From IMG/VR virus record IMGVR_UViG_3300011008_000028: a DNA stretch of 64,000 nt; one strand, given 5' to 3'. Position 1 is the first letter of the stretch. Every line of letters starts with the position of its first letter. This document shows positions 15,011 through 51,100 of the stretch, in pieces. The stretch comes from a virus. Its lineage: Duplodnaviria; Caudoviricetes. The notes beneath the pieces were generated by a model, which made no database searches, was not told the DNA's origin, and worked only from the letters and a program-made list of their open reading frames with translations. The position numbers were made by a program, and so were the translations under genes.

Positions 15011-16361
15011 CTTTAACCTCCTTTACATATTTACCGTATATATTCATAACATATCCCTTCTGGGACGTAATATACCGGTTAAGATATTTTGCAACTTTAA
15101 TAAGAATCTGAGGATCCCGAACCTTTACCAATGTCTCAATCCTTTTATCAATCTTATGAGTTACAAGATCCAACGAGCCAATGTAAATATCCGGGTTCTT
15201 CTTCCCAAAGCAGTATACCCTGGAGTGTTCCAGTTTGTCCCACACAATGGACTTTATATGGACATTCATAAACATATTCCAGTCTGGGAGCCACGTGCAT
15301 ACCCCACGAATGATAAGATCCATAGTGCATCCTTTTGATGCGGCCTTATACAGAGCTTCAATGATTTCATTATCATCAAGAGCATTGCATTTGAAACAGA
15401 TATAGCCATCGGCATGAGACTGACTTTTTATCAGCTTCAGCAATGCCTTTCGAGCATTGTATCTGGTAACAAGGAAGTTTGAATTGAACACCGTATCTTT
15501 TATCCGTTTTCCTTTTAAGATCGAGAATACTTTGTCGACCTGATGACATATAGAATCATCTGCAGTAACTAAAGAAAGATCAGTGTATTGGGTCGTGGTC
15601 TTGGTGTGGTAATTTCCAGTACCAATCTGAGCAACAGATTTCCCATTGATGAATTTCACCAATGTAAGTTTGCAATGGACTTTCAGTCGCTCATATCCGT
15701 ATGCTGTAACACTGCATCCGATGCTCTCAAACTTCTGCATCCACTCGTAGTTGATATCTTCACCGGATGCACACAGCTCGATGTTAACATGAACTTTGAC
15801 ACCGCGTTCTACAGCGTTATTTATGATATCGAATATTGCTGGGTCCTTGCCTATCCGATACAGACATAGTTTGATCTCTGTAACGTCCTTGTTATTGGCT
15901 GCTTCTTCCAGGAATGACAAATAATCTCTGAAAGAATCCAGTGGATATTCGATTAGTTGATCTCTCATAAAGATATCGAAATAGCGGCTAGGACGGAACC
16001 ACTGTTGTTCTTCCTTCTTCACAGGTAAGTACTTCTCTACTATAGAAATCATAGAGGAAATATCCGAACATCCGGAAATATCTATGTTATAGAACTTATT
16101 CAGATCTTCTGTTATGAATTTCAAATTTTCCATGACTTGATCACAATCATTAGAGTAATCATCAATCACCATGCTAACATCGTACTTTGAGATCATCTCT
16201 TCAGTATTTGATATGAAGACCATATTGAAGAATAACGCTTCTTTGATTTTCTCCAGGGACAGCATATCCGGTGAGGCTATATAATGACCTTGTGCCAGCA
16301 CACGTTCATTGAACATCATCAATGATTGTATCATTGGGATTTGTTTAATTAATTTTTGCAT
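14949..16361 (-). CDS. ppk1: polyphosphate kinase 1, shortened
   Basis: FNERVL, LYR, IEL, KVHCK, GTGNY...YTDLSL, KCNAL, DLIIRGVC, LEHSR, GSLD...KRIE; 470 aa versus ~690 aa typical. Confidence 0.85.
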   Translation of the reverse strand: MQKLIKQIPMIQSLMMFNERVLAQGHYIASPDMLSLEKIKEALFFNMVFISNTEEMISKYDVSMVIDDYSNDCDQVMENLKFITEDLNKFYNIDISGCSDISSMISIVEKYLPVKKEEQQWFRPSRYFDIFMRDQLIEYPLDSFRDYLSFLEEAANNKDVTEIKLCLYRIGKDPAIFDIINNAVERGVKVHVNIELCASGEDINYEWMQKFESIGCSVTAYGYERLKVHCKLTLVKFINGKSVAQIGTGNYHTKTTTQYTDLSLVTADDSICHQVDKVFSILKGKRIKDTVFNSNFLVTRYNARKALLKLIKSQSHADGYICFKCNALDDNEIIEALYKAASKGCTMDLIIRGVCTWLPDWNMFMNVHIKSIVWDKLEHSRVYCFGKKNPDIYIGSLDLVTHKIDKRIETLVKVRDPQILIKVAKYLNRYITSQKGYVMNIYGKYVKEVKDGLQTTNDNLDQPRNRLPIQ

Positions 16362-27727: not shown

Positions 27728-29866
27728 TTGAGAGCAATGACATTTGAAAAGATCTTATCTGATGTATCTATGGATATTATGAGCTTACAGGATGCATATA
27801 ATGAAATTCTTAAGAAAGATCATTTTAAAAAGATCAATTATTATGCCCATATCAATGATATCAGCAAAGAGCCAATGAGCGAAGGGCAGTTGCAGGAATT
27901 GGAAGCAATTGTGGATATACTTCAGATACTGTATAATTCCAGTGTCGGCAGCCCTGTTACCGATTCTGATTTTGATTCTCTACAGGAAACACTTGTTAGT
28001 ATGGGCATACCAAGACTGTCTGGTAGTCTGGAGATCAATGACAATAACAAAGTCAGCGGGATGTTTACGACTCTGCGGGGTACATTGGGTAAAACTTACT
28101 ATCTGTATCCTGATGAAATCCGTACCAACAAATCCCGAGACTATCTCGATGATTGGATCAAACGTACTGAAGCTCTGTATGAGCGGAAGACTGGAAAGAA
28201 GATTGATCTGAATAAAGTGAAATGTGTTGTTCAAAGCAAATTCGATGGGGTAAGCGTAACTCTCGAATACAGTGGAGAGAAGCCTGTGTGGATTAGCCGA
28301 GGAGATACCAAAGCCAACAGGGCATCTGATGTGAGTCATCATATGAAACAATTCAACGATGTCTTCTGCAATGATGGTCCAATTGGTATCAAGTTCGAAT
28401 GTATGATGAGCGAGGAGAACTTCGAATATATCAATTCCCTAATAAGTAATCCTCAGTTACGGTATCACAATTCCAGGCAGGTTGTGACATCTACACTGAA
28501 CTCAGGTGAAGCGGATTTCAAATCAGAATATCTGTATCCCGTACCATTGCGTGTTATACACCCTGGGGAAGATATGGAAGAGATTCATCCAGATATGTAT
28601 GCGAAGTTCCCGACTGTTGTATGCACATTCGGGGATCGTGATATCATCAAGAAGTTCGCAAATGAACATCGGTATGTTGAATATCGCGGGATGCATTTCC
28701 GGACAGATGGTGCCGTATTGACAATACTTGATCCTGAAATAAGACGCGTCCTTGGTCGTGAAGAGAATGTTAATAAGTTCGAAGTCGCGTATAAGTTCAC
28801 CGAAGAACAGGCCATTACCAAAGTCAAGAAGGTCGAGTTCTATGTATCCAATTTCGGGTTTGTGACTCCAGTACTTGTGGTGAATGATGTAATCCTTAAG
28901 GGTAATACAATCAACCACATATCTCTGTCCAATAAGGAACGGTTTGATGAGCTTGATCTTCATTACGGTGATGAAGTCAAGGTACTATATGACATCATTC
29001 CGTATGTGATCATCGATCCGATGTGCAATCGGCAGCCACATGGTCGGAAGATCGAGTTCGTCCGTTTCTGTCCAAGATGCGGTCATGAGCTGAATCTGAA
29101 TACTACTCAAATCCAGTGTAAGAACCCATCCTGTCCATGTAAAGTCATCGGCAATATTCTGAACTATTGTCAGGGAGTGAGGATCCAGAATATTGGTTAT
29201 TCCACCCTAGAGCAACTGTGGAATGCCGGACTTCTTAAGAATGGAATTCGTTCATTGTATAAGCTCAAGAAGAAGGCAAATGAGATTACCGATCTTGAAG
29301 GATTTGGGCAACTCAAGGCAAGGAAGATCATTTCGGAAATCGAAGCGAAACGTCGGCTTCCGGATTATATCTTCTTCGGGTCCATTGGAATACAAGGCCT
29401 GTCTACGAAATCCTTCCAGGAAATATTCAGCAAAGTACCTCTGGATGATTTCGTCAATATGATCAAGGCGAAATCGTTTGAACTACTGAGAGAACGGCTA
29501 TTGATGGCAAACACCATCGGCGCTGTGAAGACTGGTGATCTCGTGAACTGGCTCAAGGATACAAAGAACCGCACTGAACTATTCAAACTCATGGATGAGT
29601 TGTTGATCAAAGAATCTTACTCTGCTGCAGAAGTATCCAAGAATATGATCAAGATTGTATTCTCTGGATGTAGACCATCTGAAGAGATGAGAGCAATGTT
29701 AACGAATCATGGATATGAAGTATGCGACAATTGGCATTCTCAGGCCAGGTATCTGGTCATCCCCAGGAATGGATTCACATCCAGTAAGGTTAACAAAGCC
29801 ATGAGTAAAGGCATCCCGATAATAACTATCGGAAATATAACAAGAGATATACCAGGTCTCATATAA
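27728..29866 (+). CDS. ligA: NAD-dependent DNA ligase
   Basis: TDSDFDSL, KFDGVS, SRGD, TDGAVL, AYKF, CPRCG..C.NPSC Zn finger, HhH repeats, C-terminal BRCT. Confidence 0.92.
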   Translation: MRAMTFEKILSDVSMDIMSLQDAYNEILKKDHFKKINYYAHINDISKEPMSEGQLQELEAIVDILQILYNSSVGSPVTDSDFDSLQETLVSMGIPRLSGSLEINDNNKVSGMFTTLRGTLGKTYYLYPDEIRTNKSRDYLDDWIKRTEALYERKTGKKIDLNKVKCVVQSKFDGVSVTLEYSGEKPVWISRGDTKANRASDVSHHMKQFNDVFCNDGPIGIKFECMMSEENFEYINSLISNPQLRYHNSRQVVTSTLNSGEADFKSEYLYPVPLRVIHPGEDMEEIHPDMYAKFPTVVCTFGDRDIIKKFANEHRYVEYRGMHFRTDGAVLTILDPEIRRVLGREENVNKFEVAYKFTEEQAITKVKKVEFYVSNFGFVTPVLVVNDVILKGNTINHISLSNKERFDELDLHYGDEVKVLYDIIPYVIIDPMCNRQPHGRKIEFVRFCPRCGHELNLNTTQIQCKNPSCPCKVIGNILNYCQGVRIQNIGYSTLEQLWNAGLLKNGIRSLYKLKKKANEITDLEGFGQLKARKIISEIEAKRRLPDYIFFGSIGIQGLSTKSFQEIFSKVPLDDFVNMIKAKSFELLRERLLMANTIGAVKTGDLVNWLKDTKNRTELFKLMDELLIKESYSAAEVSKNMIKIVFSGCRPSEEMRAMLTNHGYEVCDNWHSQARYLVIPRNGFTSSKVNKAMSKGIPIITIGNITRDIPGLI

Positions 29867-31562: not shown

Positions 31563-32090
31563 ATGGCTAAGAAGAGTAAGAAGATCGACAAGGAAACGCG
31601 TCGCATGATCGAAAGCATCTCCGATCTCGTTAAGAAGAAAGGAGATCGCTATAAGTTCAAATCCAAGAAGAAGAAGCTGATTAAGAAGGTTAAGATGAGC
31701 TGCTGCCACTGGACTATCCGTAAAGGCAAGGAAGTTCCGACAACCATCAGAGACCCGCAGCGTGACGGATATTATAAGTGCGCAATATGCGGCGCTTCCT
31801 TCCCGGTTAAGCCTCAGACGATGGATGACGGCACCTCCGCTTATAAGGAAACCACGAAGCAGATGCTCGAACTCGTTGATCAGATGCAGTTCTATGGCGT
31901 AAAGCTCGGTGGTGATGCGGATGATACCAAGATGTTCCTGAAGCTCAAGGAGAACCTCCCTAGGTTTGCAAAGGTATCGGCCCAGATCATCAAGAGACTT
32001 AACAAGCGTGAGACCTTCGACAAGAGACGCGAAAAGGGTGATTCGTTGTCGAGATTCGATAGCTACAGTAGCTTCCAGTACCGCGGCTAA
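31563..32090 (+). CDS. basic Zn-ribbon protein
   Basis: CCHW...CAICG; AGGAGG RBS. Confidence 0.7.
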   Translation: MAKKSKKIDKETRRMIESISDLVKKKGDRYKFKSKKKKLIKKVKMSCCHWTIRKGKEVPTTIRDPQRDGYYKCAICGASFPVKPQTMDDGTSAYKETTKQMLELVDQMQFYGVKLGGDADDTKMFLKLKENLPRFAKVSAQIIKRLNKRETFDKRREKGDSLSRFDSYSSFQYRG

Positions 32091-32099
32091 ACAACATAT

Positions 32100-32126
32100 A
32101 TCACACCCGGGAATCCCGGGTGTGAT
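32100..32126. terminator. palindromic hairpin
   Basis: ATCACACCCGGGA-a-TCCCGGGTGTGAT. Confidence 0.65.
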
Positions 32127-32156: not shown

Positions 32157-32807
32157 ATGAATATACTTGAAATGATCGAATGGAAACCATTCAACCTTGA
32201 AACTGCTCCGAAGAATCACACTCTGATACTTCGCAATGTAGCAGATCATCTGGATATTACCATGGTGATTTACAATGCCCAAACAGGAAAGTTTGCCATC
32301 ATGAACGCTAACCCGATCTCTGAAGTTAGCGAGGAGATGTATGACAAGGGACTCATTCTGGTCGACCATGATAAGTTCGAAAACTCGGAGTATTTTACAG
32401 TTCAGGATCTCTCTCAGCAGGATGCGTCGATCGTCACCAGCGCTGCGTTACTGGATCTGACTGCCATGTCACCAATTTTCTACCCGAGGTTCGATCACAA
32501 GAACGCCAAAGAGTTCGTCTCAAAGAATATCATGATTCCCACTGTTCAGCCGTTTTTCTCCGTCTTTAACAGTGCAATGATGATCGAGGATATTGCGAAC
32601 TCGACAATGGTTAGTAAGACGAAGGTATCTGGATCGGATATCGTGTCTTTCTATGATACCATGGATCATGCCAAGAACATGAAGATGTTTGCACTGGTAT
32701 CCATGCACAGAGAGTGGATCGCTGTTCAGGATAAGGATGAACTTCTCGATGAAACATATGAGAAGATGGTTGCCAATGGTGCATTTGATGATGAGGAGGA
32801 AGAATAA
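32157..32807 (+). CDS. hypothetical protein, first gene of the NAD cluster
   Basis: 216 aa, AGGAGG RBS; TAATG overlap with pncA. Confidence 0.7.
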   Translation: MNILEMIEWKPFNLETAPKNHTLILRNVADHLDITMVIYNAQTGKFAIMNANPISEVSEEMYDKGLILVDHDKFENSEYFTVQDLSQQDASIVTSAALLDLTAMSPIFYPRFDHKNAKEFVSKNIMIPTVQPFFSVFNSAMMIEDIANSTMVSKTKVSGSDIVSFYDTMDHAKNMKMFALVSMHREWIAVQDKDELLDETYEKMVANGAFDDEEEE

Positions 32808-33418
32808 TGAAAAAGAAATTACTAATTGTAATCGATATGCAGAAAGACTTTGTCGATGGAAGTCTTGGAAGTAGGCAGGCACAGGCAATCGTTCCTCGCG
32901 TACAGGAACTGATTGATTCTGATGAGTTTGACATTACTCTCTTTACCAGAGATACTCACAATGAAGACTACTTGGACAATACTCTCGAAGGCAAGATGCT
33001 CCCAGTTAAGCACTGCATCTATGAGACAGATGGTTGGCAGCTGGTTGTTAAACCCAAGATCGAAGAGTACAATGGTCTGTCGGCTATCATCGACAAGTAC
33101 ACGTTCGGCTCTACGAATCTTGTACCAACAATCATTGAGGCAATATCCAATTTCGAGAGTACCTATAGGCTCACGATTCCGGATATCGCCAAAGAATTCA
33201 TCGATACTATTACGATTGTCGGGCTGTGTACCGACATCTGTGTTATCTCCAATGCACTTCTTCTGAGAGCCGAATTCCCTGATACAAGAATCATCTGTGA
33301 TGCGTCGGCATGTGCTGGTGTTACACCTCATCGTCATGAGTGCGCTCTGGAAGTTATGAGAAGTTGTCAGATCGAAGTAATCAACGCATGCCCTGATATG
33401 CCCAATGAGAAGGAGTAA
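32807..33418 (+). CDS. pncA: nicotinamidase (isochorismatase family)
   Basis: VIDMQKDFVDGSL, TRDTH, HC...GW, DKYTFGS, GLCTDICV. Confidence 0.9.
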   Translation: MKKKLLIVIDMQKDFVDGSLGSRQAQAIVPRVQELIDSDEFDITLFTRDTHNEDYLDNTLEGKMLPVKHCIYETDGWQLVVKPKIEEYNGLSAIIDKYTFGSTNLVPTIIEAISNFESTYRLTIPDIAKEFIDTITIVGLCTDICVISNALLLRAEFPDTRIICDASACAGVTPHRHECALEVMRSCQIEVINACPDMPNEKE

Positions 33419-34657
33419 ATGATGTTTATTTTGGAGAAGATAGATCACAAGCTTCCGAGAATCATCAATAGCCTGTTGGAGACAGACATGTATAAGTTCT
33501 CCATGGGACAGGCGATATATCACCAGTTCTCGGATTACAAAACCACATGGACATTCAAATGCAGGAATCAGGATGTCCACTTTACAGAAGAGATGGTTGA
33601 GGAGATCAAGAATCAGATTAAGCTGTATTGCGAACTGCAGTTTACCGAGGAAGAGCTCCAGTACCTGAACAACATCAAATGGATCAAAGGATCATATGTG
33701 GACTTCCTCCGGCTGTGGAGACCTCGGTTCGAAGACTTCGAAATATCATCTGATTCCGCCTGCGGACTTTCCATTGAGACCAAGGGAACTTGGCTAAATA
33801 CTTCTATGTATGAGATCCCTACATTGGCGATCGTCAATGAGGTGTATTTCAAAATGCAATACGATTATCAGATGCTTCTGAAGAGCTTCCAACAGAAGCT
33901 GGACGAAAAGTGTGAATGGATTCACAAGGGAACCATCTACCCTGGCACATTCTCCGAGTTCGGTCTAAGAAGAAGACTGTCTGGAGATGCACAGGAATTG
34001 GCCGTCAAGCAGCTATCGGAAACCAGACTCTGTTCCGGCAAGTTCGTCGGTACATCCAATGTCTATCTGGCAAAGAAGTATAACCTGACTCCCGTAGGAA
34101 CAATGGCTCATGAATGGTGCATGTGTGTAGGCCAAGGCAACCATAAGCACAACCCTGCATATTCCAACTGGTATGCTCTGGATGCCTGGGTTAAAGAATA
34201 TGGAGTCCTGAATGGAATTGCATTAACAGATGCAATCACAACTGACTGCTTCCTGAAGGACTTCAGACTTACATATGCTACCCTCTTCTCAGGCGTAAGG
34301 CATGATTCTGGTGATCCTTATGAGTGGGGCGAAAAGATGATCAAACACTACGAGTCGCTCGGAATCAATCCGAAAACAAAGACTCTGTTGTTCAGTGATT
34401 CTCTCGACTTCCATAGAGCAGACAAGCTCTTCCGTCACTTCTGTGAATACACAAACGTTGCATTCGGCATTGGAACATATCTTTCAAATGATACCGATGT
34501 TGCCCCGCTTAATATCGTTATGAAGACAACGATGTGCAACGGAATGGATGTAGCCAAGATCTCGGATACCGAAGGTAAAGGAATGTGTAAGAATCCAGAG
34601 TACGTTGAGTATCTGAAGAGATGTATAGATTGGAGAATGAGTCATGAAGCCAGGTAG
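33419..34657 (+). CDS. pncB: nicotinate phosphoribosyltransferase
   Basis: SLLETDMYKFSM, EFGLRRR, GTSN, GTMAHEW, GVRHDSGDP, FSDSL, FGIGT, KISD..GK. Confidence 0.95.
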   Translation: MMFILEKIDHKLPRIINSLLETDMYKFSMGQAIYHQFSDYKTTWTFKCRNQDVHFTEEMVEEIKNQIKLYCELQFTEEELQYLNNIKWIKGSYVDFLRLWRPRFEDFEISSDSACGLSIETKGTWLNTSMYEIPTLAIVNEVYFKMQYDYQMLLKSFQQKLDEKCEWIHKGTIYPGTFSEFGLRRRLSGDAQELAVKQLSETRLCSGKFVGTSNVYLAKKYNLTPVGTMAHEWCMCVGQGNHKHNPAYSNWYALDAWVKEYGVLNGIALTDAITTDCFLKDFRLTYATLFSGVRHDSGDPYEWGEKMIKHYESLGINPKTKTLLFSDSLDFHRADKLFRHFCEYTNVAFGIGTYLSNDTDVAPLNIVMKTTMCNGMDVAKISDTEGKGMCKNPEYVEYLKRCIDWRMSHEAR

Positions 34658-35246
34658 AGTTATACTAATTCCTGGGACATTCAATCCACCTACAAACGCC
34701 CATATCGCAATGAGTCAGGAATTACATAAAGTATTTCCCGGAAGTAAAATTGTGTATGTTCCCTGTAATGATAACTACACAGTGGAATACAAGAAGCAAC
34801 AGGGATGTATCAAGATGGAAGACCGTGTTCGGCTGTTGTATGGATGTATTAATCAGAAATATTCGTATGTGTCGATATTTGAAGCCAATGCTGATCCATA
34901 CGGATACCTTATAGATACTGCCCGGTATTATCATTCCATCTATGATGATGTCGCAATCTGTCTGGGTGATGACAATCTTAAACATTTCGATACATGGAAA
35001 GATGCTGAAGCACTGATTCAGGAGAATATGATTGTATATTTCCATAGAGCCGGCTATTGTGGCAACTTCTGTAAATTAATACAAGATCATCACTGGCAGT
35101 GTATTTCAGTTCCTGGGGTTATTCCAAACATCTCATCCACGAAAATACGTCAAGCGTATCTAGATGGGAACTGGGATCTGATAATCCAGAATGTTCCGGA
35201 AAACGTATTCTTGTATCTTCGTTACACAGATGGCCTCTTTGAGTGA
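34644..35246 (+). CDS. nadD: nicotinate/nicotinamide mononucleotide adenylyltransferase
   Basis: GTFNPPTNAH, GDDNL..F.TW, ISSTKIR, VPENV..Y. Confidence 0.88.
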   Translation: MKPGRVILIPGTFNPPTNAHIAMSQELHKVFPGSKIVYVPCNDNYTVEYKKQQGCIKMEDRVRLLYGCINQKYSYVSIFEANADPYGYLIDTARYYHSIYDDVAICLGDDNLKHFDTWKDAEALIQENMIVYFHRAGYCGNFCKLIQDHHWQCISVPGVIPNISSTKIRQAYLDGNWDLIIQNVPENVFLYLRYTDGLFE

Positions 35247-35254
35247 TATGAAAA

Positions 35255-35280
35255 CAGATGGGCAGGATCCTGCCCATCTG
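35255..35280. terminator. perfect 26-nt palindrome between nadD and nadE
   Basis: CAGATGGGCAGGATCCTGCCCATCTG. Confidence 0.6.
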
Positions 35281-35307
35281 AGTTATTTTTATAAAGGAGA
35301 ATTCAAA

Positions 35308-36141
35308 ATGGAATATGATGTCAAAGATTATACCCGATGGATCATCGAATGGATCCAGGGCTGGTTCAATGTTAATGGCAAAGGTTGTAATGCCATAGTC
35401 GGAATATCCGGCGGTAAGGACAGCACGATTGTTGCCAAACTTTGTTGTGAAGCTCTCGGTGAAGATCGTGTCAGCGGTGTGTTAATTCCGATGGATATGG
35501 AACCTGACCCGATTGCATATCGCGTAATCCAGTATCTTGGGATTCATTATACCACGATCATAATCGGTCAAGCATATAAGTCCATCATTGATCAGATCTA
35601 TTCGTTTGGCGATCGAGTTTATATACATAAAGATCTCGTGACTCGACAGATTAATGAGGAACCATCCGCTGCAACCAAGATCAATCTCCCGGCTAGATTG
35701 AGAATGGCTGTGTTATATGCACATGCCCAATCCAATAACGGGCGTGTTGCAAATACATGCAACTTCTCCGAAGACTATGTTGGCTACTCTACCAGATACG
35801 GTGATAGTGTTGGTGACTTCAGCCCTATCTCAAACTTCACCGTTACTGAAGTCAAAGAGATTGGCAGGTATCTTGGAATTCCGAACGAATTCATCGATAG
35901 ACCTCCAGAAGATGGTCTATGCGGGAAAACGGATGAGGACAATCTTGGGTTCACATATGATATGCTGGATAAGTATATCACCGAGGGTATCCTTCCCCCT
36001 CCCGAGATCAAGGAGAAAATCGATCGTCTTCATAAGCAGAATCTATTCAAGCTCAAACTAATGGAGTCCTGTCCGAACCCATTCGTCAAGAGAGCAGCTC
36101 TTGATGAACTAAAGGAGGAGAGCCCAGTTGACAGAGTTTAA
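35308..36141 (+). CDS. nadE: NH3-dependent NAD+ synthetase
   Basis: VGISGGKDS, NLPARLRMAVLY, NFSEDYVGYSTRYGD, PEDGL..TDEDNLGFTY; ATG 35308 after AAGGAG. Confidence 0.93.
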   Translation: MEYDVKDYTRWIIEWIQGWFNVNGKGCNAIVGISGGKDSTIVAKLCCEALGEDRVSGVLIPMDMEPDPIAYRVIQYLGIHYTTIIIGQAYKSIIDQIYSFGDRVYIHKDLVTRQINEEPSAATKINLPARLRMAVLYAHAQSNNGRVANTCNFSEDYVGYSTRYGDSVGDFSPISNFTVTEVKEIGRYLGIPNEFIDRPPEDGLCGKTDEDNLGFTYDMLDKYITEGILPPPEIKEKIDRLHKQNLFKLKLMESCPNPFVKRAALDELKEESPVDRV

Positions 36142-36739
36142 ACTTTCGCGATATGTCAAAGAGGAGTTACCAACATGGGCAGAAATGCATGAATGGTATC
36201 AGAATCAGTTCTATGATTATATACCTCCTGCACATAAGGAACCACTTGACCCTTACTGGAAGATTCCGAAACGGCTATACACATTGGCTTCCGTATGCAA
36301 CCAGCTCAACAAGATGCTCCTTGAAGATGAATATATTATTGGACTTATTAATACACTACACGATGAGTTCGAAGATTTAGCAATCGATGACATATATTTC
36401 GCTATTCATATAGGGGCATTCCATAACGTAGATAAGAATACGATTTATACTTGGGATACGAAACCAAATCCATTCATATCAGATTCATCTACCAGACAAA
36501 TGGTAAATCCTTCGCTTCACAGCAGCTTGGTTGTTATCACACATCAGTCAAAAGATTTAAAAGCAATTCTCACAGAAGAAGAAGCAAAGGCATTACATAG
36601 TCGAATAATTGAGTTCATGTTTATGGAGATTGAACGGTATTATACAGAACCGATTGGTTGGAAAGATGAAAAAGGCAATCCGTCTATCTATCGGAAGAAG
36701 CCCTTTGTTTGCCCTTCTGGATTTGATCCTGCGTTATGA
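36128..36739 (+). CDS. hypothetical protein
   Basis: 203 aa, TTG start after AAGGAGG, overlaps the nadE end. Confidence 0.65.
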   Translation: MTEFKLSRYVKEELPTWAEMHEWYQNQFYDYIPPAHKEPLDPYWKIPKRLYTLASVCNQLNKMLLEDEYIIGLINTLHDEFEDLAIDDIYFAIHIGAFHNVDKNTIYTWDTKPNPFISDSSTRQMVNPSLHSSLVVITHQSKDLKAILTEEEAKALHSRIIEFMFMEIERYYTEPIGWKDEKGNPSIYRKKPFVCPSGFDPAL

Positions 36740-36747
36740 CAAAGATA

Positions 36748-36771
36748 CCACCCCGGGATAACCCGGGGTGG
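36748..36771. terminator. palindromic hairpin ending the NAD cluster
   Basis: CCACCCCGGG-ataa-CCCGGGGTGG. Confidence 0.65.
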
Positions 36772-36943
36772 CTCCGTTGTTACCATCATGATATATGATA
36801 CATATGGAAATCTTGATCGTTATGACGATAACGATACATGATATGACTTATAAACATCATCATTTTTCAATGATATATTATTAATATGAGAGATTAGTAA
36901 GATCGATCTCCCAAATCCTTATTTCAGAAAGGAGGATACAGTT

Positions 36944-37550: not shown

Positions 37551-37579
37551 ACATCCCCCGGAATGATTCCGGGGGATGT
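37551..37579. terminator. palindromic hairpin
   Basis: ACATCCCCCGGAAT-g-ATTCCGGGGGATGT. Confidence 0.65.
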
Positions 37580-37581
37580 GA

Positions 37582-37878
37582 TTAGTTTTTCACATTGGCC
37601 GTTACGGTATCTCCGTTCATACTAACATTTGCATTGTCGGTTAATGACTGTTGAATCTGAGATGCTGTTTCACTGTCTGTAGATACCTTCATACTGAAGG
37701 CAGTATCTCCATCTGTACTTGGTCCAGGAGATACATTATCGATCTTTTCAGATTGGTCTTTGACAGCATCATAGCATGCAGAAAAAGAATCATACTTGTT
37801 GGTCACGAAGTCTGTCAGCTTGGCGGGATCATCGGCCGGTATTACCTTGCCCATATAACCGGGCTTATACTTTTCCAT
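37582..37878 (-). CDS. hypothetical protein
   Basis: 98-aa ORF followed by palindrome 37551-37579. Confidence 0.65.
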   Translation of the reverse strand: MEKYKPGYMGKVIPADDPAKLTDFVTNKYDSFSACYDAVKDQSEKIDNVSPGPSTDGDTAFSMKVSTDSETASQIQQSLTDNANVSMNGDTVTANVKN

Positions 37879-38023
37879 CGTTGGTAACCCTGCTTTCTGT
37901 TAAGAGATTTGATAAGGGAGGATTCTTACTCAGATATTCCTCCCTCAGTTCGAGCAACTTTATGAAATATCCTCGGGGAAGTTTAGTAAACGCATAGTCA
38001 AAGGTAGGATCATCTTTGAACAT
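37865..38023 (-). CDS. 52-aa ORF or -1 frameshift extension of 38047..39900 (not in the ORF track)
   Basis: MFKDDPTFDYAFTKLPRGYFIKLLELREEYLSKNPPLSNLLTESRVTNDGKV; this frame is open upstream through CTTTTT at 38103-38098. Confidence 0.55.
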   Translation of the reverse strand: MFKDDPTFDYAFTKLPRGYFIKLLELREEYLSKNPPLSNLLTESRVTNDGKV

Positions 38024-38046
38024 ACGACCACTCTTCTCCAGGATCT

Positions 38047-39900
38047 TTAGTTGCTGCTCAGCGTTATGTTCACGCTCGCCAGGCTGCGAGCTACTATAAA
38101 AAGCAACGTAGCCACGTTGTCTATAGTGATATCAGTCTTCGATTTGCAAACAGGACATACCACGTTCGGAATCGAGTATTCAAGAGTATACGGTTCCCTG
38201 GAAAGTCTTGAGATTTCCATGAGCACATGATAGTCTACTTCATTGAGACTATCAATAACCTTGGTGATGTTGTTGATGCCCGTGATACGCTTCCAGCCGT
38301 CTCCAGATGGGATTAAGAATGCTTTGATTGTAGGAAGCATCATTACAGAGTAGGACTTCGAAAGAATCTCCGGATCTTCTGTATCTTCAAGCTCCTTAAT
38401 CTTTCCATATATAGAATTAAGGAATTCGTACGCCGATGCATGACCGTAGATTACCTTGTAGCCGGCATTGGGCAGATCTACATAGTTGGAGTTTGACACA
38501 GGCGATGTTGCATACAGGTCCATGATCTTATCCTTCGTATTGGCTGTAGCAACTTCCTTAATCTCATCTAATGTAGATTGAGCAATGCTTTCAACTCTTA
38601 ACATTTCCGCAGGTCTGTATATATGCTCATACGAATGTTTACACTGCTTGCACTTGATGGTCACAAGTTCTGTACCCATCGTTGTTGCACAGAGAATCTT
38701 CCAGAGAATGAACTCAAGATCCATGAAAGATGTCTTTCTGAGGAAGTCTTCGAACTTCGATACGGAATGGATCTCGCTGCTCTTAACCTCAGGAGGGATG
38801 GTCGAAAGCATATTTGTCTTAACCATCTTCTTGGACGTGGGATCCTTATACATCTTATACTCTTCCCAAGGACCAATGCTCTGATTCTTTATATGATTGA
38901 ACGCAATGGACCACTTCTTACGTTCACCGTCATATGTATTCATCTCGACAGCCGTTGATAGATCGATGATCTCAGCATATGTAAGGCCGGTGAAGGTCGC
39001 CCGATAATGTGATGCAGGCAATGCTGCAGATACTTCATTCACCGTACGTTCATACGAGGACAGAATCGAATCGATTGCATCATCCTCAACATCTTCAATG
39101 TTACCTAACTGAAGATCCTCGGATTCAACGATCTTCAATTCGATCGTTCTGGAACGTCTGATCTTTTCCGATTCTTCTTCTGTCCATGCGATCTGATCAG
39201 CATCTATCTTGTTGATGATCACCTGAACGATGTCTTTGGACCTCATCTCTTCATCCGTAAGAGGAACGTCATGCCTATACTCTTCAGGCGTTTCAACAGT
39301 TGGAGCATCTGCATCAGCTTCAACCACAGGTGCTATGTAATCATCTGTGCGGGCATATATCAGATACGGATATTCTGTTTCAACAAGATTCAGAAGTTCA
39401 TCAAGTGTCGCTTGAGAACGCTGGTAATCTGAATCTTCTGCAGCGATATGGAATTTGGTCTGAAGATCTCCAGGTGGGATCTGCAGGTACTTGATATGGT
39501 GTCTCGCCTTCGCCTCTTCAATATTGCGAAGTTGTCTCTGCAGATCCGCAATCTTCGTATTGCCGTCTTTCATATTCGCTTCGTCTGCACCATTAATCGG
39601 AGCTCCTCTGGACTCAACGATTTCGCCTTTATCATAGACAACACCCAATGTCTGCTGCTCAGGGAGTCCTTCCATAAGTTCAGGGTTAGGGGTCCATGCT
39701 TTGGCTTTCTTTGCTTTGATTGTGGATTCAGCGGGGCTGGTGTACTCCAGTTTTTCAATACCATCTGAGGGTTCAGATGGTGTATCTTCTTCGACTGTGT
39801 TCGATCCATAGAATTTGCTCGTATCGAATGCATCTTCGAGATCCTGAGGCTCATCTATTTCATCGAGAACACTAAAAGGTTTATTTGCCATTACGTGCAA
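38047..39900 (-). CDS. probable baseplate hub / tail assembly protein (T4 gp26-like C-terminus)
   Basis: SFMDLEFILW, CKQC and CPVC pairs, ending ..TLLF; acidic N-terminus. Confidence 0.55.
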   Translation of the reverse strand: MHVMANKPFSVLDEIDEPQDLEDAFDTSKFYGSNTVEEDTPSEPSDGIEKLEYTSPAESTIKAKKAKAWTPNPELMEGLPEQQTLGVVYDKGEIVESRGAPINGADEANMKDGNTKIADLQRQLRNIEEAKARHHIKYLQIPPGDLQTKFHIAAEDSDYQRSQATLDELLNLVETEYPYLIYARTDDYIAPVVEADADAPTVETPEEYRHDVPLTDEEMRSKDIVQVIINKIDADQIAWTEEESEKIRRSRTIELKIVESEDLQLGNIEDVEDDAIDSILSSYERTVNEVSAALPASHYRATFTGLTYAEIIDLSTAVEMNTYDGERKKWSIAFNHIKNQSIGPWEEYKMYKDPTSKKMVKTNMLSTIPPEVKSSEIHSVSKFEDFLRKTSFMDLEFILWKILCATTMGTELVTIKCKQCKHSYEHIYRPAEMLRVESIAQSTLDEIKEVATANTKDKIMDLYATSPVSNSNYVDLPNAGYKVIYGHASAYEFLNSIYGKIKELEDTEDPEILSKSYSVMMLPTIKAFLIPSGDGWKRITGINNITKVIDSLNEVDYHVLMEISRLSREPYTLEYSIPNVVCPVCKSKTDITIDNVATLLFIVARSLASVNITLSSN

Positions 39901-39950
39901 TCCTCCTTGCTTATTATATTATACTTTCGGGTTTAAACGGGCCGGATATT

Positions 39951-41228
39951 TTAATTGTAGTAATTGATCATCAGTATGATGTAGTTATAAATTGCTCTGG
40001 TGTAATTGATAATGGTAGCTTCTCTATCATACATACTTCTGATATTGATGATATCATTCATCCAATACTGGAGAATGGATTTAATTTCACTTAGGAAAGG
40101 ATCTTTTGAAGTTCCTATTGAGCGATATATAGATAGGCCAAAGTTCAGGAACTCGGATGATCCGACTGTAGATGTTGTGGGGTTCTTGTCAAAATAAGCC
40201 ATAATGACATTCTCGATCAGCTTGTTCAGACGATTGTTTTTGCTGGAATTGATCTGAGCAATGAAGCCCGAAAGATTACCGACATCTACTTGGGATGCTT
40301 TGGCCGAGTATTTGACCATAGAAGAATTGATCTCACCTGCAGCGAATTTAGATACAGTCTTCTCGATTATCTGTGCCGAGATGGTTGTATGTCCATCTTG
40401 ATCAGCTAAAGATCCATCATCAAACTGTGTAGGGTCATTATGTTGAGTATGAGATCCCTGATCATTTCGATAGTATGCATGTGCAATTTTTCTGAACTTG
40501 GCATTGATATTATTTCTAATACGTCGGATCAGATCAAGGTATGTGTTGTCGGCACCGATCTTGAGAGCATCAGCATAGAATTCAACAGCAATGGTTGCAT
40601 CATACTTGATGAGCTCAAGTATGTTCTTGCACTGTTTGATTTTGAACTTCGTCCCTAGATGTTCTATGGTGTAATTCATTACCTCTTCCTTGACGCCTGT
40701 CTTCCAGTACTCACGGTAGATGATTGGGTAATCACATAATCCCAGGATGTACTCACAGCATTCTATCAGATCCGTGTAATCTTTCATATATGCCTCAGTA
40801 AGAATTGCAACTATAAGAATCTTATGGGGAGCATGTTTTACCCATCCGGTGAAGCTCTTGCTGATCTTTCCGAAATATGTTTCATTGATCATATTCAGAT
40901 ATAGATCAATTATCTGCTCACCGGTAATATTGAACATCTCGTAGAAGAAGGTTGTTTCCTTGGCGGAGAATGTCACCATATATACCGGGCCGGATGTGGA
41001 CAATTTGTCCGCATTCTCATCCATGAATTTTCCCGTAAATTCTATAATAGCATCTCGGTTTTTCTGTGTCGCAATTACAGGAGCAACAATCTTCTCCTGA
41101 AGATTGGTTTTGAAGTAATAGCCGTCTTTATGGACTCCGGGCTTTTCCGATTCATCGAAACAGTCAAGATCATCTTCAATGAATTCAGCATCTTCATACT
41201 CACGTAAAAATATTTCATATGGTCTCAT
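39951..41228 (-). CDS. hypothetical protein
   Basis: 425 aa, AAGGAG RBS. Confidence 0.75.
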   Translation of the reverse strand: MRPYEIFLREYEDAEFIEDDLDCFDESEKPGVHKDGYYFKTNLQEKIVAPVIATQKNRDAIIEFTGKFMDENADKLSTSGPVYMVTFSAKETTFFYEMFNITGEQIIDLYLNMINETYFGKISKSFTGWVKHAPHKILIVAILTEAYMKDYTDLIECCEYILGLCDYPIIYREYWKTGVKEEVMNYTIEHLGTKFKIKQCKNILELIKYDATIAVEFYADALKIGADNTYLDLIRRIRNNINAKFRKIAHAYYRNDQGSHTQHNDPTQFDDGSLADQDGHTTISAQIIEKTVSKFAAGEINSSMVKYSAKASQVDVGNLSGFIAQINSSKNNRLNKLIENVIMAYFDKNPTTSTVGSSEFLNFGLSIYRSIGTSKDPFLSEIKSILQYWMNDIINIRSMYDREATIINYTRAIYNYIILMINYYN

Positions 41229-41314
41229 GATTAACCACTCCTTTATTGAATCAATTATATATTTGAAGATTATATATTATTATTCTAGAATATACACTAT
41301 CGGAGGTACATACC

Positions 41315-43885
41315 GTGAAAGTTATATATTTAAAATTGGTAAATGTTGCAGGGCTAAACGTGGGGACAGGCAAAGATACAATCGAAATCGATTTCACCAA
41401 ATCTCACAATCGAATCATTGCCATTCGTGCCAGGAATGCCCATGGCAAAACAACGTTACTATCATCTATCACACCATTTGCATATGTTACGTCATTGGAT
41501 GATAGATCATCCATTTCATATATTATGAAAGGCAAAGATGGGTATAAAGAAATCCATTACCAAGATGGGAAGGATATCTATATCATCAAACACTACTTCA
41601 AACATTCAAAGGATACTCACACCGTCAAATCATATTTCATGAAGAATGGGGAAGAGCTGAATGAAAACGGGAATGTTACATCCTTCAATTCCTGTGTGGA
41701 GATGTATCTTGGACTGACTCAGGAAATGATGAGACTAATCCGAATCGGTACCAATGTAAATTCCTTCATCACTCTTACTCCTGCTCGACGTAAGGAATAC
41801 ATCGGAAAGCTCATCGAGGAGATTGATACATATCTATCAATTTATAGGAAGATAAATGATGATATCCGAGTTGTCAAGACAATGCTTCAGGCTAATAACA
41901 CGAATCTGTATAATTGCCATATCACAGATCCTGTCATGGAACAAGAGCGATTGACAAAATTGGAAAAAGATATCAAACGATACGAGAAGGAACGTGATGA
42001 TATTATTGCCAAAGTTGCCAAGTTAAATGCTCTGACAAAAGGAAATGATATTACAGAACTCCGACAGAGATTACATGAGGCAGAAGCTGCCCTGAAGGAA
42101 TTCGATAAACTTTCAGATGCAATAAAAGAAGAATCATTACAGGATACTACAGTGGAGCAGTTAATCAAAGAACGAATGAGATTGGATCAAAAGAAGATAG
42201 ATACCAAGTCCAATATCAATTCGAATAAGATAATGATCGATAATCTCTTACAGCAGATAGAGCGTCTTGAGATGACTATCAAACGGGTTACGTCCGACAC
42301 AGACATTCAATCGATCATGTCTGCTATTGCTGATATTCGAGAGAAGATATCTATGATTCCTTCTGAGGTTAAGGACTTCACCCCACTTGGCTCCCTTTCG
42401 GCTGAAGTATACAATGTCCTGTTGAAATTAGATTCGTTCAATCAAACATCTCAAATGATATACACTCTTGGGAACAAACCAGTTGCAGTGTATATCAAGC
42501 TCCGCCGAGAAGGAATCAGTGTAGACAGATGGTTACGAGAACAATCAAAGCGTGCATTAAGTAGGATAAATGACATTGAACTGAAGGCATTGTTTGACAA
42601 GGTATTCCAGGGTGATGGAGTAATAATGCCTAACTGTGATACAGAGTACAAGGACTGCCCGTTCTTCCGTTTCTCAGATACCCTTTTCGAGATAAAAAAT
42701 AAATTTGAGGATGAAACATATTCAGATGAAGATCTAAATGCAATTCAGATCATCTCAAATAATATTGATAACATCCTGAATGAAATTGATAGGTTGATGG
42801 TCGTGAAATTTCCTGAGTCTATCAAGGATACTCTGAGGGAAAGTATCATTCTGGATAGAATGGAGCACCATGTTCCTTTCTTCAATCTGAATGATCTTCA
42901 GACATACATAAGCATCCTCAAGGAATATGAGGTACTGTGTCAGTACAAGTACTCGTTATCGGAATATGAAAATCAGTTGAAGATGTATCAGAAAGCCGGC
43001 GTCGATTCCCATATTGAAGAGATCAAGCATCTGAAGGAATCGATTGCCAGATATAAGGCACAGATGGAAGAACTCGGCAAGCAGGTATTCATCATTGATA
43101 CAGAACTTCAACAAGTTGATTCTAAAATTGCTCTGATTACCAAGTATCAAGAATCGATGAAGCACAGGGCAATATATGAGCAAACGAAGAATTCGACATC
43201 GGCGTTGTTAATCCCTCTGGAATCCGCGGAACATGAACGAATCGAATTGAAGTTCAAACAGGAGCAATTCGAGAATCTGATTCAATCTTCTCGGAATGAA
43301 CACAGATCCTTGGAAATCAAATTGTCCACATACAATCGATTGATCCAAGAATCGAAGAAGCTCAGTCTCAAAAATCTAGAGTTGAGTGCAATACTCGATG
43401 CCGTATCTACTAAGAAGGGTATTCCAGTATACTATATGAAACATTACCTGGCTAAAATACAGAAGCTAAGTAATGATCTCCTTGATATCATATATGGGGA
43501 TGAGTTCAAGCTTGCGGCATTCAATGTAACACCGGAGACATTCGAGGTTCCGTACATCAAGAACGGAAAGAAGATTGAGGATATCAAATATGCATCACAG
43601 TCTGAAATTGCTCTGGCAACAATGGCCTTGTCATTTGCTCTGGCAAACTCTGCTACGGACAAGTATAACATTCTGCTTCTTGATGAAATAGACGGTGGGC
43701 TGGATGAAGTGAATCGTTCTGCATTCTTGGATATGTTACGGATGCAAATGGAAACGCTTGATGCTCAGCAGGTATTCATCATCTCTCAGAATCTAGGATC
43801 CATGGCGAACATTCCAATGGACTGCATCGATCTGTCCGATGTGGGTACAAAATCACCTCTGCAGAATATCATCTACGAAGTATGA
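41315..43885 (+). CDS. sbcC: SbcC/Rad50-like SMC ATPase
   Basis: Walker A ARNAHGKTT, long coiled coil with central CDTEYKDCPF hook, signature ASQSE, Walker B LLLDEIDGGLD. Confidence 0.88.
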   Translation: MKVIYLKLVNVAGLNVGTGKDTIEIDFTKSHNRIIAIRARNAHGKTTLLSSITPFAYVTSLDDRSSISYIMKGKDGYKEIHYQDGKDIYIIKHYFKHSKDTHTVKSYFMKNGEELNENGNVTSFNSCVEMYLGLTQEMMRLIRIGTNVNSFITLTPARRKEYIGKLIEEIDTYLSIYRKINDDIRVVKTMLQANNTNLYNCHITDPVMEQERLTKLEKDIKRYEKERDDIIAKVAKLNALTKGNDITELRQRLHEAEAALKEFDKLSDAIKEESLQDTTVEQLIKERMRLDQKKIDTKSNINSNKIMIDNLLQQIERLEMTIKRVTSDTDIQSIMSAIADIREKISMIPSEVKDFTPLGSLSAEVYNVLLKLDSFNQTSQMIYTLGNKPVAVYIKLRREGISVDRWLREQSKRALSRINDIELKALFDKVFQGDGVIMPNCDTEYKDCPFFRFSDTLFEIKNKFEDETYSDEDLNAIQIISNNIDNILNEIDRLMVVKFPESIKDTLRESIILDRMEHHVPFFNLNDLQTYISILKEYEVLCQYKYSLSEYENQLKMYQKAGVDSHIEEIKHLKESIARYKAQMEELGKQVFIIDTELQQVDSKIALITKYQESMKHRAIYEQTKNSTSALLIPLESAEHERIELKFKQEQFENLIQSSRNEHRSLEIKLSTYNRLIQESKKLSLKNLELSAILDAVSTKKGIPVYYMKHYLAKIQKLSNDLLDIIYGDEFKLAAFNVTPETFEVPYIKNGKKIEDIKYASQSEIALATMALSFALANSATDKYNILLLDEIDGGLDEVNRSAFLDMLRMQMETLDAQQVFIISQNLGSMANIPMDCIDLSDVGTKSPLQNIIYEV

Positions 43886-48198: not shown

Positions 48199-51100
48199 CG
48201 TTTGTCTACCAAACTTTATAACTCATGTGGACTATATCTTCACATCAAACGATATGTCTGCCGTTTCCATTTAAGGGAGCTCATCCCCACCTTATTAAGG
48301 CCGTACTCTCTTTTGAGATAGTCTCTGAACACATATCCCTGTGGGATACTTCGCTGCGTCGATTAGCCAACTCTATTTATTTTTTACCATACCTTGAGAT
48401 ATTACCTCTTGCCATCATCTCTATTACTAGGATGATTTGGTATAAATAGATATTCCAGCTTTCCCGCAATTAGGCAGATATTTGTTAACCCGGGGCTCAA
48501 TGCATGAGCTTGACTTAAAGTCCCGGGAGTATCGCTGAAGGAATCGATAACGTGTAGTCACTTGAATCAGGTTTGACTTTACGTATCGTCATATCCAGGA
48601 TACTACCAAATGTAATTGTCAATTATCTTCCACCGTGTTCGCAACACACGGTGCGTTCTCTTATGAACTGCACTGTATCTCTACAGTAGTTGAGACTATA
48701 TCTTCTTAGACATGCACTTCCCATTATGATACCCTATTCCGTTGAGGTATCGACCGCTTGGTGGTACTCTACTAGGTCTATCTCTAGACTGGTTCGATAG
48801 TCGTTGAAGCGTCATCTATAGTATTTGCACCGAAGTCTCGATATGTACTTTCGGTGAGACTTAGTATCCGATATGCTAAGTCTGTATATGATTTCATCAG
48901 AATCAATAATACCTTGATCAAATAGATCATATATCTGGTCAGAGAGTTTGTACAGTTTACACGGTTCCAACCCAGGTATGTTATACTGATTGGATATTCG
49001 TCTCCATGTCCTTCCAAGTCGAATATCTTTAACGGCGTTATACGATACATGATATTGTCTAACGATGTCCATTGTGGTATATCCATTGGACAGAGCATTG
49101 CATATATCATGCACCGTATCAGGAGCCAATACTCTGGTTGTCTCAGATATCGTATACTCGGAAGAAACCTGTTTCCACTCTCCACGGTATTTGATCCCGA
49201 TGATGAATGATGCTGATAGGTGTGTTTGTTTTTCAATCGATTTGATACTCATTCCAGATGCTAGCAGCTCGCATACAAGTCGGGCTTGTTCTTCAGTATG
49301 TGTAGCATATGAACAAGCAGACCCTGTCTTGATCAATCCTGTACGGATTGCGTGATCTAGGTTCTCCTTCATTGTAACCCACTCCAGATTCCGATACCAT
49401 GCCAGGTTATGGTTACCATTGATATGGTTTACCTGGGGTTTGAACTCTGGATTTGGTATGAAGTACTTTGCAACCAGACGATGAATATCAAGTATCTTCC
49501 CGCAAATATACACATATGGATAGCCATGGTCTCTGGCCGGCTGAATCGGTATTGTCTGTATATGGCCTTTGATTCTGACTGTACCCACATTGGATATTTC
49601 ATATCCAGTAGGTGTTCCGAATACAATTTCTTTCCACTCTGGATTATTTAAGTCTCGTATGTAATCATTCAACAGTTGGATTTCTCCTATCTGTAATTCT
49701 ACCTCTGGTTTGTTGAATAATTCCATACTTCTTGTATCTCTATTATCTTGGAGCATCTGGGTTATTACATCCAGTGCCGACATATGATTTCATGAATTCC
49801 TTTCTATATGTATTTCGGATTTGATTACTATAGATGCTTGCCTGCGGATTGACTGTATACATGATGATTTTACCATCCCTAATCCGTTATGATTAGTGCT
49901 ACATAATACATTGCTGTACTACTGCGGTTATCATGTCTTGGCCAGTCTTCCCCGACAATTCACATGTTTTTACAATCCCCCAAAGTTAAGGATTCCTATT
50001 GAGTATAATGTGCGGAGAATCCTCTTCTATAACTCTCTGCATTACAGAATACACATAGGGATCATAGTTGAACTTTGATGCCAGATAGTTTGATGCCTTG
50101 GTTATTGTCCAACCCTTATCCTTTATGATTCTGCGTAATATATGACCCTTATACTGATCAATGAAAGCCTTGTATGGAACATCGACTTCATCAATATGCA
50201 GTGTAGGATCCAGGACGATTACAGATCGTCCTGAATAATTCCATTCACCACCAAGGACGCTTGAACGCACTGCGCCGTGCTTCCCATCGATGAGTTGGAA
50301 GTTGATAGACCAAAGTTCGTTAGCCCTCATCTGTGCCTGATACAGATAGAGAGGAACCTCGATCGGTGTTGCTCTTTTCAAGTTGATTGAAATATTCACC
50401 AACGGATGAATCTGTTTGTCCCAATTATCTTCATAATAGTTCGCAATACTATTATCGTCTTCATACACCCATTTGAAGACTGCTGCACCTCTCGGTACAT
50501 GTTGTGACTATATCTTCATGAGTAATCTGTTACCAATTACTACATGCTCCCCATTTCCGCTTTAGATACAGGCCATTCCACTGCCTGTATGAACCCGTTT
50601 GCTTGGCCCGTACTCTACTGACACTATGTATGGTATTTCTCCAATACTAGTGTTGGTCGATAGTCGATGAAGGTTATACTTTATTGAATACCATTTTCTT
50701 TCTTATAATTTCTTCTTATTAGACAAATCAATGCTTTATCAGACTCATTGAGAGGGTCCATTCCAACTTGTTTCGCTATTTCCTTTGAGGTTTGATTTAT
50801 ATCAACACCATTATCGAATGCTCGCTTGACCATTTCTGTTATACTTCGAGGCGGAAGATATATAGATTTCGTTAATCCAGGTATATCATATTGATCGGAA
50901 ATCTTTCTATAACATCTTCCTTTTGCAATTGCTCTAACCATAGATCGTGTCATTCGATCGTCTTCAATTGTATTTGCAATATCCGCATATCCTTCTCCTT
51001 CCTGGAGACGTTTGCATATACCATGAATCATTTCATCAGGAAAACGTTCTCTCTTTTCCGGCCAAGGGATATTATACTCTTTAGAAATATACATCCATGC

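Follow-up and report, generated by a model that had tools for sequence, protein, structure and literature searches.

A 64,000-nucleotide stretch of Caudoviricetes DNA (IMG/VR record IMGVR_UViG_3300011008_000028; hereafter the window, meaning this stretch at its full length) carries a set of genes for the synthesis of nicotinamide adenine dinucleotide (NAD+). The window belongs to a rumen phage, probably of jumbo size, with its own multisubunit RNA polymerase. The genes in question, pncA, pncB, nadD and nadE, stand together with an open reading frame (ORF) of no detectable relatives, orf216, in a cassette of about 4 kb at 32157-36141 on the plus strand. We consider it quite probable that this is an accessory cassette, placed at a variable spot of the phage genome, whose enzymes regenerate NAD+ from nicotinamide during infection. 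The gene set holds up and is intact; though divergent, it is otherwise a typical example of clusters that earlier sequence studies had described.

Four enzymes of NAD+ synthesis in pathway order

Six consecutive plus-strand ORFs lie within 32157-36739, and four of them (about 3.3 kb in all) encode the enzymes of the nicotinamidase/Preiss-Handler route, the order of the genes being the order of the pathway. A preliminary description of this DNA had proposed a complete PncA-PncB-NadD-NadE set with intact catalytic motifs, arranged in pathway order and tightly coupled. Family matches and motifs confirm the complete set, and the gene order stands, as do the tight junctions between orf216 and pncA (TAATG), between pncA and pncB (0 nt) and between pncB and nadD (a 14-nt overlap). 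The description of tight coupling fails at nadD and nadE, which are most likely separated by a 61-nt spacer holding a terminator-like hairpin followed by a T-run (35255-35280, plus strand; 11-bp G+C-rich stem, -23.1 kcal/mol, z -5.8). Such a structure might terminate some transcripts or mark a site of processing. The catalytic motifs are likewise intact in PncA, PncB and NadE and in the ISSTKIR motif of NadD, the exception being the first nucleotidyltransferase motif of NadD, which reads T-x-A-H and not HxGH.

The first enzyme, encoded at 32807-33418 (plus strand), is a PncA-type nicotinamidase, a class that converts nicotinamide to nicotinate and NH3. It matches PF00857 (isochorismatase/nicotinamidase) with 65 bits, and its best solved relatives are the nicotinamidases 1ilw/1im5 (Pyrococcus horikoshii PncA) and 3pl1. 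When aligned to 1ilw/1im5, whose triad we take to be numbered D10/K94/C133, the phage protein keeps the catalytic triad as D10, K97 and C145 and the metal ligands as D49, H51 and H69. A metal site of the form Asp-x-His...His (xPxHC segment) is the criterion that separates nicotinamidases from other isochorismatase-fold hydrolases, and the phage segments D49-T-H51 and V-K-H69-C align to DWH...RHC of 1ilw.

The second enzyme, at 33419-34657 (plus strand), is a full-length nicotinate phosphoribosyltransferase, PncB, of the kind that joins nicotinate and phosphoribosyl pyrophosphate (PRPP) into nicotinate mononucleotide (NaMN). Both nicotinate phosphoribosyltransferase (NAPRTase) domains, PF17767 and PF04095, are present, and the protein exceeds the curated cut-offs of NF003704 (483 bits against 379) and TIGR01514 (414 bits against 270). 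It aligns to Pseudomonas aeruginosa PncB (1yir) at E 4e-95 with an identical GTMAHEW motif, and shares 75-82% identity with the PncB proteins of viral contigs and of Clostridia from gut and rumen, Lachnospiraceae included.

The third gene, at 34644-35246 (plus strand), encodes a NadD-family nucleotide adenylyltransferase (TIGR00482, 86.8 bits; E 4e-6 against Bacillus anthracis NadD, 3dv2), which is predicted to turn NaMN and ATP into nicotinate adenine dinucleotide (NaAD). It belongs to a subfamily in which G-x-F-x-P-x-T-x-A-H and SS(T/S)xxR are invariant among eight diverse members, and its closest relatives (P0006-P0008) are 51-67% identical. No close relatives of this NadD were found in the IMG/VR search or in a first metagenome scan; a later scan with a profile of the subfamily yielded 80 loci.

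The fourth enzyme is a single-domain, NH3-dependent NadE, of the class that makes NAD+ from NaAD, ATP and NH3. It scores 153 bits against TIGR00552 (cut-off 63.65), carries an SGGKDS PP-loop at residue 34, and has PF02540 as its sole Pfam match, with no glutaminase (CN hydrolase) domain. An ORF of 316 amino acids, 35191-36141, overlaps nadD by 56 nt and is probably over-extended. Because the family match begins well inside this ORF, the hairpin follows nadD and an AAAGGAG site then stands 8 nt before an ATG at 35308, we read the gene as 35308-36141 (plus strand), the start being revised from 35191. The resulting protein of 277 amino acids is of the usual size for the NH3-type class.

Acting in sequence, these enzymes would rebuild NAD+ from nicotinamide in four steps. 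PncA would deamidate nicotinamide, PncB would join the nicotinate to PRPP to give NaMN, the T-x-A-H NadD would adenylylate NaMN to NaAD, and the NH3-type NadE would amidate NaAD with free ammonia to give NAD+. Free ammonia is plentiful in the rumen. Family membership and the active-site motifs described above are read directly from the proteins; we infer which substrate each of the final two enzymes takes first.

A swapped order for those two steps, in which NadE acts on NaMN as a synthetase of nicotinamide mononucleotide (NMN), as in Francisella, and the T-x-A-H enzyme then converts NMN to NAD+, appears improbable. Among solved structures the NadE matches 2e18 and 3fiu, both at E 1e-30, and the second of these, which we take to be the NMN synthetase of Francisella tularensis, trails the first only slightly (108.8 against 110 bits). 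The NadD subfamily is atypical and falls below the equivalog cut-off, and some related viral modules run pncA-pncB-nadE with no nadD between (L010, L011, L022-L024), both of which would suit a swapped order. Against it, the best family matches of the adenylyltransferase are all models of NadD, the NaMN-preferring enzyme.

Insertion site, distribution and origin of the module

The cassette interrupts a backbone that is otherwise conserved among related phages. Twelve IMG/VR contigs of up to 292 kb carry orf203, the gene at the right border of the insertion (36128-36739, plus strand), in a conserved order: topoisomerase II, LigA, up188, up350, up175, a short gap, orf203, three minus-strand genes and SbcC. 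The gene up188 was detected in 7 of the 12, the minus-strand genes and SbcC occupy 37582-43885 in the window, and two of the contigs (L128 and L132) do not have the downstream genes inside the retrieved stretch. The left border is formed by up175 (31563-32090, plus strand), which shares 48-65% identity with its counterpart in 11 of the 12 relatives, against 34% in L132, always stands just upstream of the orf203 homologue, and found no match in family searches.

Between up175 and orf203 the relatives have a gap of 0.06-1.9 kb, as against 4.0 kb in the window. A terminator-like hairpin lies 3' of up175 (32100-32126, plus strand; 12-bp stem, -22.3 kcal/mol, z -6.9), and an equivalent hairpin with a T-run follows the up175 homologue in L125, where orf203 comes directly after it, and in L127, where one small ORF intervenes. 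No NAD gene lies within 7 kb in any of the 12 relatives. CheckV classes five of these contigs as complete (246-292 kb), and in these no PF04095 (NAPRTase/NAMPT) or PF02540 (NAD synthase) match occurs anywhere, while the expected controls were detected. The block of orf216 and the four NAD genes is cargo gained by one lineage of this phage family between two backbone genes. In relatives the same spot holds unrelated ORFs (L124:5769-6964, L126:5580-6588, L130:6103-6960), with proteins of 285-306 amino acids without a family and a weak DUF5662 match, and the spot can therefore be regarded as a general cargo slot.

These relatives also bear on a proposal that the cassette feeds the phage's own NAD+ consumers, chiefly a LigA-type DNA ligase, with no connection to immunity. 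The preliminary description had pointed to a NAD-dependent ligase upstream as a consumer of this supply. The ligase itself is present at 27728-29866 (plus strand), outside the cassette and 2.3 kb upstream of it, within the block of plus-strand replication genes (topoisomerase II, LigA) that also holds the insertion, with Pfam adenylation and OB domains, PDB matches to 1dgs, 8ak4 and 2owo, and a K171-x-D-G motif. Many NAD-consuming enzymes are moreover encoded by the gut "NAD-jumbo phages" (PMC11662467). The feeding role itself is not supported. The ligase is 51-62% identical in the 12 relatives that lack NAD genes nearby, and since the five complete relatives all keep it in the syntenic locus without a NAPRTase/NAMPT or NadE gene, the cassette is dispensable and the ligase independent of it. 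By established enzymology LigA releases NMN and not nicotinamide, so that PncA and PncB would not be a direct recycling route for the ligase product, and no NMN deamidase was seen among the ORFs scanned. We therefore judge supply of the phage's own consumers to be an unlikely purpose of the cassette.

The two ORFs flanking the NAD genes had been put forward as candidate accessory factors, and neither is supported in that part. An exhaustive HMMER search gave 160 relatives of orf203 at E<=1e-3, and together with its synteny in the 12 phage contigs without NAD genes this rules it out as an accessory factor; it is a backbone gene outside the NAD module. The family comprises conserved jumbo-phage proteins of about 200-270 amino acids with invariant L14, P15, W17, E19, N58, N61 and Y171. 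The window copy lacks the usual MPW N-terminus of the family and starts at a TTG, with a strong ribosome-binding site, inside the end of nadE, from which it follows that the right edge of the insertion extends into the 5' end of orf203. Structure prediction, also proposed earlier for both ORFs, gave a confident AlphaFold2 model of orf203 (predicted local distance difference test (pLDDT) 90, predicted template modelling score 0.83) with uninformative fold matches (best E 0.15 with Foldseek against the PDB; best Z 4.0 with VIA-align over 48,161 chains), and no Pfam match was obtained.

For orf216 (32157-32807, plus strand; AGGAGG site 7 nt upstream, coupled to pncA by TAATG and inside the insertion) the models were not usable, at a pLDDT of 32 with AlphaFold2 and 0.43 in the ESM Atlas, the latter without a usable match. 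A search of 5.8 billion clusters, excluding the 'longer' and 'shorter' length classes, returned only orf216 itself. No Pfam match appeared even at E 10, and none of the other copies of the NAD module examined has the gene. An accessory function is thus unsupported for orf216. It may have arrived with the cassette, and nothing ties it to NAD chemistry.

The module is far more widespread than this phage family. A survey for co-occurrence, suggested in the preliminary description, did find the genes travelling together: the PncB search returned 28 IMG/VR loci, 20 of which have pncA-pncB-nadD-nadE in the same order. Their flanks have nothing else in common with the window, and they therefore belong to other phage lineages. 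The invariant G-x-F-x-P-x-T-x-A-H nevertheless recurs in their NadD proteins, as in that of the window and in its few close relatives. The profile of the T-x-A-H NadD retrieved 80 loci from metagenomes, chiefly of the human gut and the rumen; many of these loci lie on contigs 100-380 kb long. The four genes occur in the same order and on the same strand in 62 of these 80, and among the 45 loci that span 14 kb or more, 43 have all four. Deposited phage records contain scattered homologues of PncB, PncA and NadE. From these gene neighbourhoods, the T-x-A-H NadD subfamily appears to be almost always linked to pncA-pncB-nadE, which should make it a handy marker of the module, and the four-gene cassette has the look of a recurrent module under selection.

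Two further arrangements of NAD genes were observed in viral contigs. In the gut phage Phage Phass-1 (L123; OQ749652.1, 96860-101298) five annotated genes stand in one run, encoding a nicotinamidase, a ribose-phosphate pyrophosphokinase, a 533-amino-acid 'nicotinamide phosphoribosyltransferase', a small ORF and a NadE-like protein 40% identical to that of the window. By analogy, this run might be a deamidated version of the NAD+ reconstitution pathway NARP1, with a NARP1-like middle pair (Adps and Namat) bracketed by PncA and NadE. The other arrangement (L114:5959-11818, also L115-L121) interleaves NAD genes with genes of RNA-repair type, in the order NAMPT-like protein (PF04095 and NAMPT_N), a 166-amino-acid ORF, NadE, an RlaP-family nucleotidyltransferase, a CCA-adding/poly(A) polymerase-like enzyme with an HD domain, and PncA.

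Bacterial chromosomes present a different picture. Among 80 bacterial loci sampled, the pncA-pncB pair occurs in 32 and all four genes together in none. The pair has the same order in Lachnospiraceae and 'Ruminiclostridium' as in the phage, with PncB 75-81% and PncA 35-53% identical, whereas nadD and nadE lie elsewhere in these bacteria and their NadD is only 22-25% identical to that of the phage. In the 'Ruminiclostridium' metagenome-assembled genomes (MAGs) from the rumen both the pair and nadE sit among chromosomal housekeeping genes, and the best NadE match found is the chromosomal NadE of one such MAG (55-58%). A maximum-likelihood tree groups the window PncB with these MAGs (Shimodaira-Hasegawa-like approximate likelihood ratio test (SH-aLRT) 97). 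An independent origin of the window pncB is accordingly favoured by the tree, and we do not claim independent assembly, a single origin with the main viral PncB clade giving p 0.21 in the approximately unbiased test.

Since identities to the nearest bacterial genes are only 81% for PncB, 53% for PncA and 55-58% for NadE, these three genes look as if they were captured long ago from Clostridia hosts rather than inserted recently or as a chimera, and the NadD belongs to the subfamily that travels with the module. Phages and many Clostridia share about 80% identity in PncB, compared with about 46% in PncA, 50% in NadE and 26% in NadD of the same loci. This gap appears to be a striking difference of rate or history inside one module.

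A further reading takes the cassette for host DNA that was picked up recently, or for a chimeric assembly, and that does nothing for the phage; a recent chimeric insertion from the host had been raised earlier as grounds on which the proposal would fall. This reading would agree with the similarity of PncA, PncB and NadE to chromosomal genes of rumen Clostridia and with the absence of the cassette from relatives. The evidence makes this highly improbable. Besides the 53-81% identities, the NAD genes do not stand out from the spread of the other phage genes in GC content, GC content at third codon positions or codon usage, and the active-site motifs described above are kept. The junctions carry phage-like ribosome-binding sites and hairpins, nadE overlaps the backbone gene orf203, and identical orf216 and NadD sequences are present on three contigs. 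The four-gene order, common in viral contigs, is also the one that no sampled bacterial locus has.

Possible benefit to the phage and relation to known pathways

We further infer that the cassette is expressed during infection and benefits the phage. The benefit would most likely be a faster resynthesis of NAD+ from nicotinamide than the host enzymes allow while NAD+ is being cleaved. Many bacterial immune systems (Thoeris, DSR, SIR2-HerA, SEFIR) end in the depletion of NAD+, and cleavage by immune NADases is our leading candidate for the cause of the loss, at a confidence that stays short of an even chance; the alternative is a general supply for phage replication. The input through PncA and the dispensable nature of the cargo would fit counter-defence and also a general boost to NAD+ recycling.

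Several points weigh against the cassette being a working nicotinamide-to-NAD+ route of use to the phage. PncA reaches only 24.4 bits against the NF008623 equivalog cut-off of 174 and is a divergent member of its family. NadD, at 86.8 bits, is under the TIGR00482 equivalog cut-off of 112.45, its top family matches still all being NadD models, and its motif GTFNPPTNAH has Thr for His and Ala for Gly in place of HxGH. The gene is parted from nadE by the terminator-like hairpin, and a common origin of its neighbour PncB with the main viral clade is not rejected by the test given above. The putative host lineage, Clostridia, is drawn purely from gene similarity, and this candidate lineage already has pncA-pncB, nadD and nadE, so that the phage would duplicate host functions and add none. 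Each NAD+ would finally cost PRPP and up to three ATP over four steps, which may be too slow for a fast NADase.

A dedicated counter-defence function, in which a fourth NAD+ reconstitution pathway would use the nicotinamide released by SIR2, TIR or SEFIR NADases and proceed through deamidated intermediates, is possible rather than probable. Through PncA the pathway would start from nicotinamide, which NADases (and ADP-ribosyltransferases) release. Like many anti-defence genes, these are dispensable cargo lodged at a variable spot, and the module is widespread in phages and complete in none of the 80 bacterial loci sampled. NARP1 to NARP3 demonstrate that resynthesis of NAD+ can beat such defences, and the same idea has been proposed for gut jumbo phages (PMC11662467). 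On the other side, a literature search found no deamidating phage route assayed against defence. The neighbours at the variable spot in relatives give no lead either, Pfam returning only two weak DUF matches below cut-off, with no anti-defence gene library searched. The route takes four steps at a high ATP cost and does not recycle ADP-ribose, and it is general knowledge that the host's own copy of the pathway is evidently insufficient against such systems in model bacteria.

Three phage pathways of NAD+ reconstitution have been described, NARP1 (Adps and Namat) and NARP2 (Nampt and Nmnat) in 2024 and NARP3 (PnuC and NadR) in 2026 (PMC13464706), and the papers on them make no mention of PncA, PncB, NadD or NadE in phages. 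NARP2 of Vibrio phage KVP40 (Nampt and a bifunctional Nmnat/Nudix protein; bioRxiv 10.1101/2024.02.11.579819) is likewise phage-encoded and clustered and also leads from nicotinamide and PRPP to NAD+. NARP2 does so in two amidated steps via NMN, whereas the window would use four steps via nicotinate, NaMN and NaAD; its phosphoribosyltransferase is a PncB equivalog and not Nampt, and no Nudix domain is present.

The other two pathways are phage-encoded means of rebuilding NAD+ as well, NARP1 reusing ADP-ribose through ADP-ribose pyrophosphate (ADPR-PP) and NARP3 importing nicotinamide riboside. No PRPS-like or NAMPT-like protein and no member of the PnuC and NadR-like families occurs among the six ORFs. 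The chemical difference from NARP1 and NARP2 asserted in the preliminary description is thus borne out and extends to NARP3. All three proven counter-routes use amidated intermediates, from which a deamidating route would be chemically distinct. Such a route would need ammonia and three ATP-using steps, and it appears to be common in gut and rumen phages. Unlike NARP2, which has been tested against defence systems, the window cassette is known from its sequence, and its anti-defence role is a reasonable and testable hypothesis.

Novelty, which had also been suggested for the route, does not survive comparison with the literature and the metagenomes, where the gene order is common. A 2024 study in Microbiome (PMC11662467) reported 174 gut jumbo phages with complete salvage or Preiss-Handler pathways, described pncB-nadD-nadE clusters in NAD-jumbo phages such as Kuafu_71 and Kuafu_19, and recorded that phage-encoded pncA exists; its authors suggest that phage NAD synthesis counters NAD+ depletion and call for experiments. 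Like those phages, the phage of the window, from gut or rumen and probably very large, has pncB, nadD and nadE in a cluster together with NAD consumers (the LigA-type ligase). It differs in having pncA directly in front, which makes the predicted input nicotinamide rather than nicotinate.

Beyond that report, the present analysis adds the anatomy of the insertion at a variable spot, complete sister genomes free of the cassette, the T-x-A-H NadD as a marker, a revised NadE start and the exclusion of orf203. A natural comparison is offered by one phage backbone that carries the cassette here and lacks it in five complete genomes. That a cassette with its own T-x-A-H NadD is a true fourth NAD+ reconstitution pathway, spread by phages and perhaps assembled repeatedly against NAD-depleting immunity, seems to us somewhat more doubtful than a counter-defence role as such.

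Phage setting and other features of the window

The phage nature of the window is evident from a jumbo-type RNA polymerase beta-like subunit, topoisomerase II, an SbcC-like protein, an S80 prohead protease and a virion protein. Contigs carrying proteins of this stretch reach 177,987 bp, and the complete relatives of the backbone measure 246-292 kb; the genomes of NAD-jumbo phages exceed 200 kb. No near-identical DNA was found in deposited phages and no tRNA genes in the window, and matches to sigma-70-like promoters (36) are not above chance (shuffled mean 32).

Terminator-like sites are more frequent in the region than expected from shuffles (17 observed against 6.4). The boundaries of gene blocks are marked by strong G+C-rich intergenic hairpins (32100-32126, 35255-35280, 36747-36772 and 37551-37579), several of them with a CCCGGG core. 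The third of these, with a 10-bp stem (-23 kcal/mol), lies past orf203, where the convergent minus-strand genes adjoin.

Elsewhere in the window, the minus strand at 14949-16361 encodes a protein of 470 amino acids with both C-terminal (PLD-like) domains of polyphosphate kinase 1 and a short N-terminal part. Three minus-strand ORFs at 48812-53413 have weak or partial Pfam matches to homing-endonuclease motifs, namely NUMOD4 below cut-off (48812-49783), NUMOD4 with a borderline HNH_3 (50681-51748) and a clear HNH_3 of 45 bits (52436-53413).

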